Shown piece by piece: positions 8,811 through 35,371 of a stretch of 64,000 nucleotides of DNA. A program made the position numbers and the translations under genes. The notes beneath the pieces were generated by a model. That model searched no databases, was not told where the DNA came from, and was given only the letters and a program-made list of their open reading frames with translations. Each line of letters opens with the position of its first letter. The first letter of the stretch is position 1. The stretch is from a virus (lineage: Duplodnaviria; Caudoviricetes): IMG/VR virus record IMGVR_UViG_3300023053_000001, positions 1-64,000 of that record; one strand, written 5' to 3'.

Positions 8811-10205
8811 ATGTCGAATCTCAAAGCACATTTCGGTCTGGCGGTCGAATCCGCTGCCGAAGCAGCCGCCGCTGTTTCCGAAGTGGCCACCATGCCGGTG
8901 ACCTCCGCTGAACTGGTGACCCCCGAAGACGGTCCCATTGCCGAAGCCAATGCTGAAGTGGCTGCTGAAGTCGAGGCCGCTGGCGGTCTGGAAGAAGCCA
9001 CCGTTGCACTGGAACAGCTGCATGCCATCCTCTCCGAAGCGCTGGATGACGGCGGTATGTCCCGCCAGACCGCGCGCGTGACGCAGGTCGCCGTGGACAT
9101 GGCGCATCGCCGCATGGGCCTGAGCCCGCGTGCCCTGACCTTCGAGAACGACATGCCGCCCATGGCCCGCACGCGCCTGACCATGGAAAGCATCAGCGAA
9201 TCCATGAAGGCCGCATGGGATGGCTTCATCGCCTTCTGCCTGCGCATCTGGGCCGCAATCAAGAACGTCTACCTGAACCTGACCAGCAAGGCACGTCGTC
9301 TGCGCCAGCAGGCTACCAAGCTGAGCGAACTGGCCAAGGCCATCGCACCGGGTACCAAGGCCACCGCTCGCGAAGTCGAGCTGGGTGAACTGGCCAAGTG
9401 GATGTACTTCAACGACACCAAGGCCGCCGGTCCGGTGGATTGGCTGGAGACCACCAACGCTTCGGTGCGCGATGGCGTGGACAACGTCCTGAAGACCGCA
9501 ACCGATGCCGTGGACGGCCTGGTCAAGACCCTGGGTTCGATCGATGCCAGCGACCGCGGCAGTCTGAGCTTCACCGTCAAGATGCTCGGCGCTCAGCCGG
9601 CCGGCTACATGACGGCCGTGGGCTCGCCGCAGGGTGAAGGCGTCACCGCCCGTCAGCAGTACATCGCAGGCGTCATGCCCGGCGGTCTGAACCTGGTCGC
9701 CAACCTGCCGGCTCCCAACGCGTTCACTGCCTACGAAAGCGCGCCGGAAGATCAGCGCGTACAGGCCGTGGGTCGTGACCACTACGTCCTGCAGCCTTCG
9801 GAAAAGCAACCGACCGTGGAAAAGGTCTACGTGCTGGAAACGGTCAAGCTGGAAGAGCTGGCTTCTTACATCGCCGTGATGTGCGGTGACTACGAAAGCT
9901 ACATGGGCAAGATCGCCGATTTCGAAAAGCATCTGTCCCAGAAGCTGAACACCCTGCGCAGTGCCATGGGCAAGATCCAGAACACCGTCAACGTCGGCCA
10001 CGGCGAAGCGGGTAAGTGGAATCGTGTCCTGGCCGCCACCCAGCGTGTGCAGTCCTCGCGCTTTGCTCAGCTCACCACGATGGGCGAGTACAACCTGCGT
10101 GCCGGTAGTGCCTACCTGCATGTGGTCAGCAAGATGCTGGGTCTGTACGCCACGGCAACGCCGGCTGCTGCTCCGGCAGCTGCGCCGGCTCCGGCCGCAG
10201 CCTGA
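8811..10205 (+). CDS. internal head protein paralog 2
   Basis: CAGGA RBS; AVES and TMES sites then SISESMKAAWDGFIAF helix; ends in AAAPAAAPAPAAA. Confidence 0.78.
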   Translation: MSNLKAHFGLAVESAAEAAAAVSEVATMPVTSAELVTPEDGPIAEANAEVAAEVEAAGGLEEATVALEQLHAILSEALDDGGMSRQTARVTQVAVDMAHRRMGLSPRALTFENDMPPMARTRLTMESISESMKAAWDGFIAFCLRIWAAIKNVYLNLTSKARRLRQQATKLSELAKAIAPGTKATAREVELGELAKWMYFNDTKAAGPVDWLETTNASVRDGVDNVLKTATDAVDGLVKTLGSIDASDRGSLSFTVKMLGAQPAGYMTAVGSPQGEGVTARQQYIAGVMPGGLNLVANLPAPNAFTAYESAPEDQRVQAVGRDHYVLQPSEKQPTVEKVYVLETVKLEELASYIAVMCGDYESYMGKIADFEKHLSQKLNTLRSAMGKIQNTVNVGHGEAGKWNRVLAATQRVQSSRFAQLTTMGEYNLRAGSAYLHVVSKMLGLYATATPAAAPAAAPAPAAA

Positions 10206-31661: not shown

Positions 31662-32906
31662 ATGCGCAATTATCTCGACCTGCTCAGCTATGCCTACCAC
31701 TCCGGTTCGCGTCAGATCAACGAACGTACCGGCGAGGTGACTGTCAAGGTCATCGCTCCGCAGCTGCGTTACAACCTGGCCGAAGCCTTCCCGTTGGTCA
31801 CCACCTCCAAGAAGCACCTGCGCTCGATCATCGAAGAGCTGCTGTGGTTCCGTGACGGTCGCACCAACAACCAGTGGTTGGCTGATCGCAACGTCAGCAT
31901 CTGGAACGAGTGGGCCCTGACCGAGCCGGTCATTCGCAAGCGCGCCATGGCCAACATCGATCGTGCCCGCCTCTACGCTGAGCGTGAGGGCAAGTCGCTC
32001 AAGGAAGTCACGGACCATCTGACTGAGCTGGACTTCCAAGTCCGCAAGGATGGGAAGCTGCCGTCGTCCCAGCAGGGCGGCACTCCCAACGGCGGTGAGC
32101 TGTTCCTCAACAATGAGGAGGTGCCGGCCTACCACGAAGACATCGTCTATGACGTCGGCGAACTGGGTCCGATCTACGGGCGCATGTGGCGCTACTGGCC
32201 CAATCCGGACGGCACCGTCACCGATCAGCTGACGCAGGTACTCAACGACCTGCGCGATCGCCCGTTCTCCCGTCGCCACATCGTCATGGCGTGGAATCCG
32301 TCCTTCCTGCCCGATGAACGCATCAGCGCGCAGGAGAACGTCAAGGCTGGCCGTCAGGCATTGGCGCCGTGCCACATGGGCTATCAGTTCATCGTCGAAC
32401 AACTCGAGCGGGAGCAGCGCGTCCAGCTGTACATCGCGAAGAAGTACCCGGGCGGTCTGTGCGAGGCCCAGTCCTCGGCCGATCATCTGCTCGAGTTGGT
32501 ACGCCTCAATGGTGAGCAGGTCGAAGAAGGTCGCAACTTCATGATCGATGAGATGCTGCGCCATAACGGCATCCCCGACAAGCGCCTGAACTGCGTGGTC
32601 ATGCAGCGCTCGGCCGACATCCCGCTGGGCGTGCCGTACAACATCGCCAGCTATGCGATCCTCACCATGATGATCGCCAAGCAGCTGGACTTCGCCCTGG
32701 GTGAGCTGGTCATGAACTTCCATGATGCGCACATCTACCAGAAGCAGATGGAAGGCGTGGCTGAACAGCTCCAGCGTGAGCCCAAGCCGCTGCCGCAGCT
32801 TCTGCTCAACCCGGATGTGAAGAACATCTTCGACTACGAGTTCGAGGACTTCAAGCTGGTCGGTTACGACGCTCACCCCACCATCAAGTACGAGATCACC
32901 GTCTGA
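31662..32906 (+). CDS. thyA: thymidylate synthase with two large insertions
   Basis: ELLWF, IWNEW, LGPIYG, LAPCH, QRSAD, GVPYNIASY and HIY motifs. Confidence 0.95.
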   Translation: MRNYLDLLSYAYHSGSRQINERTGEVTVKVIAPQLRYNLAEAFPLVTTSKKHLRSIIEELLWFRDGRTNNQWLADRNVSIWNEWALTEPVIRKRAMANIDRARLYAEREGKSLKEVTDHLTELDFQVRKDGKLPSSQQGGTPNGGELFLNNEEVPAYHEDIVYDVGELGPIYGRMWRYWPNPDGTVTDQLTQVLNDLRDRPFSRRHIVMAWNPSFLPDERISAQENVKAGRQALAPCHMGYQFIVEQLEREQRVQLYIAKKYPGGLCEAQSSADHLLELVRLNGEQVEEGRNFMIDEMLRHNGIPDKRLNCVVMQRSADIPLGVPYNIASYAILTMMIAKQLDFALGELVMNFHDAHIYQKQMEGVAEQLQREPKPLPQLLLNPDVKNIFDYEFEDFKLVGYDAHPTIKYEITV

Positions 32907-33902: not shown

Positions 33903-34151
33903 ATGTCTGCCCAGCAAGCCATTACCAGTCTCGTTGATACCGTCAAGCAGCAGCATGCTGACAACTCCGGCGTCCAAGCCAATGTGATCAACATCGCTGA
34001 TTTCCAGGACCCGTCCACCCACAGCGCGACGCGCAATCTGTCGCAGCTGCGCAGTGCGCTGACCCGCGCCGGTATGGCCGTCGGTCTGTTCTCCACCAAG
34101 ACCACTGGCGATGGCCAGTACGAGCTGCGCACCGCGCCGATGGGTGCGTGA
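33903..34151 (+). CDS. hypothetical protein, 82 aa
   Basis: GAGG RBS; high GC3. Confidence 0.7.
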   Translation: MSAQQAITSLVDTVKQQHADNSGVQANVINIADFQDPSTHSATRNLSQLRSALTRAGMAVGLFSTKTTGDGQYELRTAPMGA

Positions 34152-34354
34152 TGGCTAAGCGACGCGGCACCATGCTCTGGCGTCTGGGCGATCTGATCGC
34201 CAGCGCCCGTGAACTGACCATGAGCCCTGCTCACGGTTCCCCGTACGTACCCTGTCGCCCGCTGGGTCATGCCAGCTTGAAATATCGACTGCGCGCTGCC
34301 TGGATGGTTTTCACCGGGCGCGCTGACGTAGTCATCTGGCCTCACGGCCAGTAA
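34151..34354 (+). CDS. conserved small phage protein
   Basis: YVPCRPLG..SL..RLRAAWxVFTGRAD..xWPxGQ pattern recalled from many phages. Confidence 0.7.
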   Translation: MAKRRGTMLWRLGDLIASARELTMSPAHGSPYVPCRPLGHASLKYRLRAAWMVFTGRADVVIWPHGQ

Positions 34355-34357
34355 GAA

Positions 34358-34658
34358 CTTGCTCCTCCTGTAGCGTTGGGAACCAAGCTCTCCTAAGCCG
34401 GGGGTCCCGAGAAACTCACTGCCGTATGCATGCGCCCAAGGGTGCGGAAGGTCCGTGGTAGGTGTACCTGCCGCAACGACGTCTGCGTACGTTTCCTACC
34501 ATGCGGTGAGTGAAGTCTATAGGCCGGGGCAAGGCGTAACCGAGTGTAGCTGCGGGTGCAGACTCGGTGGTCGTGACTTTAATTGCATAGCCTCACAGTC
34601 ACGGGCTAAACGTTTAACCCGATCGAGCCCGGCCTGTAAAAGGGCCGGGCTTTTATTT
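34358..34658 (+). ncRNA. unclassified structured RNA (~290 nt) with H-type pseudoknot and terminator
   Basis: Nested helices 34358-65/34526-33, 34367-73/34517-23, 34414-22/34503-11, 34455-62/34495-502; hairpin 34539-68; pseudoknot 34572-78/34597-603 plus 34588-92/34604-08; G-U wobbles consistent only with the + strand. Confidence 0.6.
34626..34658 (+). terminator. intrinsic terminator
   Basis: AGCCCGGCC/GGCCGGGCT stem followed by TTTATTT. Confidence 0.8.
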
Positions 34659-34678
34659 CCTCATTCAGGAGTCCAGCC

Positions 34679-34876
34679 ATGCCCAGCGGTAATCACAAGA
34701 AATACGAAGACGGAACCAACAAGCTCATGGCTGAGCACAACATTCCCTTCCACGGCGCCAACGATGTCATGTACCTGCGTAAGCAGGGTCTGCCGGAAGG
34801 CTCGCCGCAGGAACAGCAACTGATCCAAGAGTACCAGCAGGGTCATAAGCCCGACGTCACCAAGTTCACCAAGTAG
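34679..34876 (+). CDS. hypothetical protein, 65 aa
   Basis: AGGAG RBS; high GC3. Confidence 0.7.
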   Translation: MPSGNHKKYEDGTNKLMAEHNIPFHGANDVMYLRKQGLPEGSPQEQQLIQEYQQGHKPDVTKFTK

Positions 34877-34891: not shown

Positions 34892-35371
34892 ATGCTGGTC
34901 GACGGTCCTCAACCCAACCGTGTCGAAATCGAAATTGCCCGACGTGAACGCATCGTGGCGGCAGCATATGCCTACGAGATCATGAGTGAGTCATTCATGA
35001 CCGATGCGCAGTATGATGCCCAATCCAAATTGATCAATCCGGCGATCGACACCGGCGATGAAGTTTCCGATCGGTTCTTCCGTGAGAAGTTCGCCGAGCA
35101 CACCGGGTCGTGGATTTACGAATATCCGGACCTGCACAAGGTCCGGCATCTGTACTTCACCAAGTACGCGTCGCCTTACTACCAGAAGCGCTACGCGATG
35201 GCTCTGGACATCGGGGAGAAAATGCATCGTGCATACCAAGACCTCGCGAATCGTCACAACCTTGAAAAGTCTGTGGCGCTTGATCGTTTCGATCCGACCT
35301 CACCCCATGGCCAGTTGATGGCCAGTACGCTGATGGTCTTGGACGAAGAGAACTACCTCCGGTTGCGGTAA
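34892..35371 (+). CDS. stand-alone NAD-dependent ligase subdomain Ia-like (Nlig-Ia) protein
   Basis: GAGGAG RBS; VAAAYAYE....MTDAQYD..S...N...TG.....FF..F...TGxWI pattern; no adenylation domain follows. Confidence 0.65.
   Translation: MLVDGPQPNRVEIEIARRERIVAAAYAYEIMSESFMTDAQYDAQSKLINPAIDTGDEVSDRFFREKFAEHTGSWIYEYPDLHKVRHLYFTKYASPYYQKRYAMALDIGEKMHRAYQDLANRHNLEKSVALDRFDPTSPHGQLMASTLMVLDEENYLRLR

Follow-up and report, generated by a model that had tools for sequence, protein, structure and literature searches.

Evidence for a previously undescribed family of structured RNAs with a conserved 3′ core and a variable 5′ arm in phiKZ-like jumbo phages

Introduction

GOLLD is a phage-encoded structured RNA of more than 800 nt whose function is unknown; it is often found near tRNA islands and carries tRNAs within its own sequence. 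ROOL, an RNA of ∼ 580 nt, likewise occurs in phages and prophages near tRNA islands, contains multiple pseudoknots and has no known protein partner. RNAs C and D (species 1 and 2) of phage T4 are small and stable as well, and no function is known for them; they lie within the T4 tRNA cluster, are processed from the same transcripts as the tRNAs and measure about 120–140 nt. The bacterial Y RNA-like RNA YrlA is modular and consists of a closing stem, formed by its 5′ and 3′ ends, and a tRNA-like module with a T arm.

Here we describe an RNA locus in an uncultured soil phage whose IMG/VR record (IMGVR_UViG_3300023053_000001) is 190 kb long. The window referred to throughout is the stretch of 64 000 nt (positions 1–64 000 of that record) that was analysed, and all coordinates are those of the window unless stated otherwise. 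The RNA comprises ∼ 270 nt plus a terminator hairpin in the window and ∼ 270–330 nt across its family. Like GOLLD, the family combines a near-invariant 3′ core with a variable 5′ domain and has tRNA genes adjoining it. The nesting is similar as well: GOLLD carries tRNAs, and the relatives of the window RNA in the Xanthomonas phages LucasX and RTH11 carry a tRNA-like module in helix P4. The two differ markedly in size, the present RNA being a third as long, and the present RNA belongs to jumbo phages of the Gram-negative world. GOLLD is the closest known system in design; the likeness is one of analogy and is not evidence of shared descent. ROOL is comparable in its position near tRNA islands, in its pseudoknots and in having no known protein partner, but its Rfam model does not match, it has no sequence motifs in common with the window RNA and it is roughly twice as long. 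RNAs C and D of T4 are shorter than the window RNA, and we know of no pseudoknotted core described for them. The 5′ domain of the LucasX and RTH11 RNAs follows the plan of YrlA (closing stem plus tRNA-like module), whereas there is no Rfam match to YrlA, the clade of the window has no tRNA-like module and YrlA has nothing like the 3′ core. The Y RNA idea was dropped; a search of the phage record (71% complete) revealed no Ro/TROVE gene.

Results

The locus encodes a structured, non-coding RNA

Core proteins group the source phage with the phiKZ-like jumbo phages: its 969-aa virion protein (phrog_3248) is 45% identical to that of RTH11, 44% to that of LucasX and ∼ 38% to those of Xoo-sp14 and the Pseudomonas phiKZ group. 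The RNA locus lies ∼ 1.5 kb downstream of thyA amid small orphan genes, all features described here being on the + strand. Upstream is a 68-aa gene (phrog_21988, 34148–34354), which lies outside the RNA and whose TAA stop codon (34352–54) abuts it. Directly after this stop codon begins an intergenic gap that a first-pass annotation of the window had put at 325 nt and that measures 324 nt (34355–34678). The downstream gene, also outside the RNA, encodes 65 aa (34679–34876), has its own AGGAG ribosome-binding site and sits between the RNA and an Nlig-Ia-like gene. The latter is indeed ∼ 230 nt downstream of the RNA, as annotated, but its assignment is less firm than the name suggests (Pfam Nlig-Ia, 23.5 bits versus a curated cut-off of 27). 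A sigma-70 promoter scan of the locus found none.

The gap is non-coding. Its GC content by codon phase is flat (0.56/0.61/0.56), while nine out of nine neighbouring genes show ∼ 0.6/0.35/0.75. The open reading frame at 34455–34823, translation of which had been named as the counter-case to an RNA, has no codon-position GC periodicity in the part that lies within the gap, and indels between homologues are not multiples of three. Folding of the + strand yields −131 kcal/mol (z = −3.6), and none of 100 shuffled sequences is as stable; the − strand gives z = −2.1. The many G-U pairs, the orientation of the terminator and the presence of a tRNA in front in some relatives identify + as the RNA strand. 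Conservation among homologues starts at 34355, upstream of which they have an unrelated gene or a tRNA. The whole RNA gene spans 34355–34660 and is composed of a 5′ three-way-junction domain, a 3′ pseudoknotted core and an intrinsic terminator. We conclude that 34355–34660 very probably encodes a genuine structured RNA.

None of the 4227 models of Rfam 15 matches at gathering scores over the whole window. In E-value mode, searches of the window, five relatives and the corresponding LucasX gap returned nothing beyond true tRNAs, a T-arm fragment and sRNA noise resembling terminators. GOLLD (RF01998) gave no match at E-values up to 10, the self-cleaving ribozyme families (hammerhead, HDV-like, twister, pistol and hatchet) gave no model match, and neither ARAGORN nor the Rfam models detected a tRNA or tmRNA in the window RNA. 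The lack of an Rfam match places the RNA outside GOLLD, ROOL, the riboswitches, the ribozymes, tRNA and tmRNA. Several look-alikes were set aside. The likeness to group II intron domain V (GCCGUAUGC...GCGUACG) is limited to the lineage of the window and the stem covaries away. GGUCGUGACU occurs in one ZTP riboswitch sequence; the CCGCCUGGGC half, however, is missing, and Rfam reports no match. The cobalamin B12 box has only ACCUGCC in common, and this comparison, like those with conserved regions I and V of RNase P, the T-box and 6S RNA, finds no support in Rfam. The same applies to retron RNA, and no reverse transcriptase was seen beside the RNA. Given the absence of a coding signal and of an Rfam match, together with the strong covariation in seven to ten homologues described below, the first-pass classification as an unclassified structured non-coding RNA stands, and the family is previously undescribed.

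Homologues occur in soil phages and in two cultured Xanthomonas phages

Variants of the 65-aa protein at 75–92% identity led to homologue contigs from other samples, including jumbo-phage contigs of 270–273 kb. Homologues of the RNA fall into five diverged soil-phage lineages (loci L070/L071, L072, L073/L074, L075 and L158), with the cultured Xanthomonas jumbo phages LucasX and RTH11 more distant. Because the 65-aa gene was the route to every soil homologue, their synteny with it is an ascertainment effect that carries no weight either way. Two further loci, L003 and L004, add no information, being identical copies. A covariance model built from the window sequence alone gave E-values of 1e-24 to 1e-37 in five diverged lineages and 5e-4 for L158, which has a reduced form of the RNA. 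A 3′-domain model built from eight sequences (the window and the soil loci) then gave a single match in LucasX (E = 7e-6) and a single match in RTH11 (E = 0.02).

The LucasX RNA is located at about 136510–136837 of MW825358 and the RTH11 RNA at about 68511–68894 of OQ790161. Neither site is annotated at present; each falls within a large annotation-free gap behind a 99-aa gene that is itself downstream of thyA. The publication of the LucasX genome names five tRNAs and makes no mention of a non-coding RNA (PMC9009655). Directly upstream of both 3′-domain matches are the motifs ACCGUUG, GAGAAG and AUGAAGUGUC, and independent folding of the two sequences produced the P1–P2–P3–P4 layout again. The putative homology of their 5′ domains rests on these shared motifs and on architecture, the single-sequence 5′-domain model of the window scoring neither phage. 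A descriptor of the junction motifs matches RNA loci only (1.5 Mb of fetched DNA, both strands); having been written after the sequences were seen, it shows specificity and not independent discovery. The LucasX fold is not notably stable (z = −0.65), and that of RTH11 is modestly so (z = −1.9). The clade that has the RNA consists of the soil-phage group and the Xanthomonas phages LucasX and RTH11.

Neither of the two covariance models found a second copy in the source genome. Searches with blastn and megablast, using the gap and the surrounding 10 kb against 50 697 phage records, returned no match. The Nlig-Ia-like protein, used as a search handle, retrieved no relative besides itself; thyA relatives were at most 39% identical and the RNA was not found at their loci; and no such RNA follows the homologue of the 68-aa gene in an unrelated phage (L002). 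Pattern scans for the 5′ domain gave 19 loci in viral contigs, all attributable to chance, and for a 5′-domain-type pattern 24 metagenome and 39 genome loci, of which only the already-known contig was real; the 3′-domain pattern returned nothing in viral contigs. The collections scanned may lack records close to the window. The models did not match Xoo-sp14, Pseudomonas phage D6, three gammaproteobacterial MAGs or 151 sampled Gammaproteobacteria genomes; 11 IMG/VR records, mostly jumbo-sized, to which thyA or the core virion protein had led were likewise without a match. These negative results do not prove that the RNA is absent.

The 5′ domain is a three-way junction with exchangeable arms

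Every complementarity listed in the first-pass annotation is present base by base, exactly where it had been placed. Three of its four nested helices (34358–65/34526–33, 34367–73/34517–23 and 34414–22/34503–11; 8, 7 and 9 bp, each with one G-U pair) hold and belong to P1, P2 and P4. The 5′ strands of P1 (34358–65) and P2 (34367–74) occupy 34358–34374 and have their partners within 34516–33; their base-pair probability in the thermodynamic ensemble is 0.97–1.0. Compensatory changes affect 6 of the 16 pairs of P1–P2, and 97.9% of cells are paired. P3 (34376–34410) is a hairpin of variable length with three compensatory pairs, which is reduced in L158 to 6 bp with a GAAA cap and in LucasX to 5 bp; around it the junction letters are conserved, with CG before and GAGAA after. 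The P4 arm (34414–34511) contains P4 (34414–22/34503–11), with five compensatory pairs, and P4b (34423–29/34485–91), with three and with 100% of cells paired. It is followed by the junction strand GAAGU and the 3′ strands of P2 and P1 (34512–34533). The strands of the three-way junction (CG, GAGAA and UGAAGU) are conserved and purine-rich, and UGAAGU is invariant in 10 out of 10 sequences. Over the whole 5′ domain 94% of cells are paired, with 17 compensatory pairs (seven sequences, six of them distinct); a control in which the partners were slid by one to three columns gave 32–51%.

The fourth of the proposed helices (34455–62/34495–502, 8 bp) fares differently. Its ensemble probability is 0, compensatory changes are lacking, and three of the six distinct sequences disrupt one of its pairs. 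It also crosses the covarying P4b, so the drawing of four nested helices is incorrect. Helix Pe likewise has no compensatory change. The tip module of P4 (about 34430–34502, ∼ 80 nt), which includes the hairpin 34455–62/34467–74, is lineage-specific: it is missing from L158, where P4 is closed by a 9-nt loop, and it is replaced by the tRNA-like module in LucasX and RTH11.

The local hairpin GGUAGG/CCUGCC is favoured by 5.5 kcal/mol over 34455–62/34495–502. GGUAGG has two alternative conserved partners, and both pairings are intact in seven out of seven sequences by way of one-sided changes, none of them compensatory. Such a choice of partners would fit a cis-acting leader, a riboswitch or attenuator whose pseudoknotted 3′ domain responds to a ligand or factor and thereby controls how far transcription passes the terminator into the downstream genes, and a switch at this point had been proposed. 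However, the arm tip with GGUAGG is wholly missing in L158 and no riboswitch family matches. Since the P4 tip is absent from L158 and replaced in LucasX and RTH11, a switch located there is not central to the function of the family. A length of 270 nt with dispensable inserts is, moreover, large for a leader.

The 3′ domain is the best conserved part of the RNA and contains two crossing stems

The 3′ domain (∼ 90 nt) is the best conserved part of the RNA. With the pseudoknot written in, 96.5% of cells are paired and 10 pairs are compensatory in 10 sequences (nine distinct), compared with 30–37% of cells in slid controls. These counts are biased towards P5, P6 and stem 2, because the alignments were fitted to models that contain these helices (stem 1 and GGGU:ACCC were not modelled), and only five to six independent lineages are available. 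A lack of covariation or conservation had been named in the first-pass annotation as a refutation of the structure; homologues with compensatory changes were found.

P5 is a hairpin at 34540–34567 with an outer stem (34540–45/34562–67), an inner stem (34550–53/34558–61) and the loop GGGU (34554–57). Compensatory changes occur in five of the six pairs of the outer stem, all cells of which are paired, in agreement with the predicted hairpin ACCGAGU/ACUCGGU (34539–45/34562–68); the inner stem is without compensatory change. In the 4-nt bulge GNAG the letters G, A and G are invariant, as is the loop. GGGU is complementary to ACCC (34617–20), and both are invariant in 10 of 10 sequences, for which reason covariation cannot test their pairing; GGGU:ACCC may be regarded as a candidate second tertiary pairing.

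The pseudoknotted core (34569–34624) is made up of P6, stem 1 and stem 2. P6 (34569–72/34621–24) is 88.6% paired, and its changes are one-sided only, with none compensatory. Stem 1 (34573–77/34598–602) has a 5-bp GUGAC/GUCAC core that is paired in 100% of cells (nine distinct sequences) and invariant except in LucasX, where it reads GAGAC/GUCUC, a single compensatory event from U-A to A-U. The longer version proposed for this stem (CGUGACU/AGUCACG, 34572–78/34597–603) is trimmed by this comparison, as both terminal pairs break in some relatives. Stem 2 (34588–93/34603–08), predicted as UAGCC/GGCUA (34588–92/34604–08), is supported: four of its six pairs are compensatory, and its sequence is entirely different in RTH11. 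There are thus two supported crossing stems, as expected of an H-type pseudoknot, the covariation of stem 1 amounting to one event. The loop geometry is not the classical one, with 0 nt in loop 3 and 3–4 nt in loop 2, and on the 3′ side stem 1 and stem 2 adjoin without a linker, an uncommon feature in H-type knots. If the pseudoknot forms, its stacking is non-classical. A 10-nt palindrome (34607–16) considered as a dimerization site is not conserved in relatives.

Immediately 3′ of the core lies an intrinsic terminator (34625–34660) with an 11-bp G+C-rich stem, a 6-nt loop and a U tract. It had been recognized in the first-pass annotation, and a terminator scan recovers the stem at 34625–52 followed by the U tract. 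That a highly conserved pseudoknotted domain stands directly before an intrinsic terminator again fits a leader. The terminator is kept in six of seven soil-clade loci and RTH11 has a terminator-like hairpin, but in L075 the insertion of a 70-aa gene has replaced the terminator and P6 with the rest of the RNA retained, and in LucasX no terminator is found immediately 3′ of the core. The only anti-terminator pairing detected in a search that was not exhaustive, GGGCU with AGCCC, is not kept in L072–L074, where the stem covaries; the terminator losses speak against the leader, and the loss of this candidate pairing may do so as well.

RNA-library contigs run through the terminator

In four soil metatranscriptome runs we found contigs that are 100% identical to the window, starting at 34376, 34408, 34431 and 34451, respectively. 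They begin 21–96 nt inside the RNA and run through the terminator into the 65-aa gene. Because the contigs bridge the terminator, read-through transcripts probably exist, and this too is consistent with a leader; a sizeable share of the transcripts may be read-through mRNA with the element as its 5′ part. Mean word depth was 9–133 for the contig over the RNA versus 1–11 for the flanks, which we take as no more than a hint, since a single figure per contig cannot rank genes. The contigs themselves are a weak hint of transcription; giving no ends, strand or local depth, they neither prove expression nor rank its levels. The stretch 34288–34361 is covered by no contig in any of the four RNA runs, although holes in contig cover prove nothing. 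One run (X23) contains a 29-nt loose end at 34376.

Neighbouring genes turn over while the RNA and its link to tRNAs persist

The genes that follow the RNA are of five unrelated kinds (65-aa, 187-aa, 70-aa, HNH endonuclease and 72-aa). A 187-aa gene is placed between the terminator and the 65-aa gene in L072–L074. The Nlig-Ia-like gene is absent from L070–L072, and yet the RNA is kept. In LucasX and RTH11 both neighbours of the RNA are unrelated to those in the window, one of them being an HNH homing endonuclease. These data do not support the original suggestion that the RNA is a ligand-responsive leader of the Nlig-Ia/NAD gene: the RNA persists in three relatives from which that gene is missing, others have the 187-aa or the 70-aa gene inserted after the RNA, and the Xanthomonas phages have different neighbours altogether. 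A downstream gene that varies by lineage also speaks against a leader in general. Taking the terminator, the read-through contigs and the alternative pairing on the one side and the changing downstream genes, the lost terminators and the lost switch elements on the other, we consider a cis-acting leader unlikely.

By contrast with its neighbours, which turn over, the RNA is kept across phages whose core virion protein is ∼ 45% identical. In L073 a tRNA-Gln(UUG) gene ends at position 1562 and the RNA begins at 1563; L074 is organized likewise, and tRNA genes lie nearby in L158, LucasX and RTH11. The direct adjacency to tRNA-Gln and the nearby tRNA genes lead us to read the locus as a stable-RNA gene of the phage tRNA region that would be matured by tRNA-trimming nucleases. 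In 10 out of 10 sequences the RNA starts 0–3 nt from an upstream stop codon or a tRNA CCA end. So constant a junction could also be the work of a self-cleaving ribozyme or self-processing element whose core cuts its own 5′ edge and so frees the RNA from the upstream mRNA or tRNA. P1 would place the 5′ end beside the linker into the invariant pseudoknotted core, and size and crossed pairings are within the range of HDV-like, twister and hatchet ribozymes. On the other hand, no ribozyme family of Rfam 15 matched at E-values up to 10, the letters around the 5′ end are not conserved, the order of helices is unlike the layouts of HDV, hammerhead, twister, pistol and hatchet, and the junction would be accounted for, with no ribozyme involved, by host enzymes (RNase E or RNase Z) that cut at the 3′ ends of tRNAs. 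Self-cleavage therefore appears to us quite improbable, and maturation as a stable RNA of the tRNA region is the reading that we carry forward.

The insert in P4 of LucasX and RTH11 resembles a tRNA, with a Leu-like D arm, a variable-arm hairpin and a T arm (GCGGGUUCGAGUCCCGC). ARAGORN calls the LucasX insert a tRNA only when a 44-nt intron is allowed and makes no call for RTH11 at default settings; the Rfam tRNA model is silent on the LucasX insert. The D-arm stretch of the RTH11 insert matches the phage's own tRNA-Leu at 18 of 21 positions. An origin of the insert from tRNA-Leu was nevertheless rejected, as local alignment scores of 29–35 against 26 ± 5 for shuffles (maximum 41.5) are not significant overall. 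Such a degenerate tRNA-like piece, in a region rich in tRNAs and homing endonucleases where the surrounding orphan genes come and go, might suggest that the whole locus is the decaying, functionless remnant of a tRNA gene, intron or mobile element, or else a DNA-level signal. We regard this as highly improbable: 27 pairs are kept by compensatory changes, unlike what is seen in decaying or DNA-level elements, the 3′ core is better conserved than the flanking proteins across phages whose core virion protein is only ∼ 45% identical, and the G-U pairs make the signal strand-specific.

Discussion

The reading that we favour, with a probability of roughly 0.55, is that the locus encodes a stand-alone, stable structured non-coding RNA of a new family, situated in the tRNA/stable-RNA region of one phiKZ-like jumbo-phage clade. 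We suggest that the RNA would be co-transcribed with the gene or tRNA in front of it and that its 5′ end would be freed by host RNases, which in L073 and L074 would be the same cut that makes the 3′ end of tRNA-Gln. The closed P1–P2 helix and the terminator hairpin would then protect the RNA and allow it to accumulate. The invariant pseudoknotted core may be the part by which it acts in trans, most likely by offering a binding platform to a protein or to another RNA. By analogy with GOLLD, which carries tRNAs, the 5′ domain could serve as a scaffold that displays a variable cargo arm.

A bolder version of this idea, which we put forward as speculative and rather doubtful, sees in the RNA a small-scale equivalent of GOLLD and ROOL: a machine of nucleus-forming jumbo phages that consists of RNA only, folds by itself and perhaps also assembles by itself, with P4 presenting exchangeable cargo RNAs that include tRNA mimics. 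The invariant double-pseudoknot core would in that case carry out catalysis at its own 5′ edge, oligomerization or the capture of a host factor. If true, the family would be a general RNA scaffold of phages that offers a slot for cargo.

Work on the phage nucleus uses phiKZ-type giant phages as models, and these phages are also candidates for biocontrol, yet their non-coding RNAs are almost unexplored; a 2026 review states that phiKZ expresses non-coding RNAs of unknown role and says no more (PMC13282480). The presence of the RNA in two cultured phages makes direct laboratory testing possible. A conserved pseudoknotted core combined with an arm for exchangeable inserts is the design of the much larger GOLLD, and that this design is common to the window RNA and GOLLD suggests an organizing principle among tRNA-linked phage RNAs.

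tRNA genes and tRNA-like sequences

Two of the loci from soil-phage relatives that carry diverged copies of the RNA encode a tRNA-Gln(UUG) gene, complete with its CCA end, that abuts the RNA directly with no spacer (L073 1487-1562 and L074 623-698). The corresponding position before the RNA in the window's own lineage is without any tRNA, and no tRNA genes were found across the whole 64-kb window.

The cultured Xanthomonas jumbo phages LucasX and RTH11 carry a degenerate module resembling a class-II tRNA at the tip of P4, the arm whose tip is lineage-specific (LucasX 136557-136694, corresponding to L065 9558-9695; RTH11, L066 about 9566-9712). It consists of a D arm, a variable-arm hairpin and a T arm, with an insert of ∼ 44 nt at the expected site of the anticodon loop and a poor acceptor stem. 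ARAGORN called the module as a tRNA in LucasX only, with introns allowed; the Rfam tRNA model gave no match to it.

An unannotated stretch of ∼ 300 bases separates the RNA core of LucasX from the HNH endonuclease gene LUCX_148 (LucasX 136839-137144, L065 9840-10145). It contains a long hairpin (GAGAUCCCCC...GGGGGUCUC) as well as a D-arm-like stretch, UUAGCUCAGUUGGCAGCU, which may be what is left of a tRNA gene that this endonuclease disrupted. A 35-nt match to the variable-arm/T-arm part of the LucasX module was found in Pseudomonas phage D6 (16575-16609, L163 2501-2535), immediately behind an HNH endonuclease gene and within a tRNA cluster. This segment looks like the 3′ part of an endonuclease-interrupted tRNA gene.

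Neighbouring protein-coding genes

In the thymidylate synthase (window 31662-32906, 414 aa), residues 3-256 span only positions 2-165 of the Pfam profile, so that roughly 90 extra residues are inserted in frame. Erwinia phages Joad and RisingSun have a GIY-YIG homing endonuclease that splits the homologous gene in two. The Nlig-Ia-like gene (window 34892-35371, 159 aa; Pfam match under the curated cut-off) is an accessory gene. It is missing from three of the soil-phage relatives (L070-L072), and a search of 5.8 billion proteins with its product recovered only the protein itself and no other relatives.

Lineage-specific and rearranged forms of the RNA

The linker joining pseudoknot stem 2 to the ACCC motif contains a perfect 10-nt palindrome, UAAACGUUUA (window 34607-34616), that is confined to the window lineage; the linkers of relatives differ and are A/U-rich. 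One contig from the soil metatranscriptome run X23 has 29 unmatched letters ahead of window position 34376, and the start of its match coincides exactly with the P2/P3 boundary. The contig could be chimeric or could represent a variant strain whose 5′ part differs.

The 5′ domain of the L075 copy is identical to that of the window, yet the sequence 3′ of ACCCG has been exchanged (L075 875-1204), a very recent rearrangement. Core helix P6 and the terminator are lost and a 70-aa gene is inserted, changes by which the RNA may have been either disabled or re-wired.
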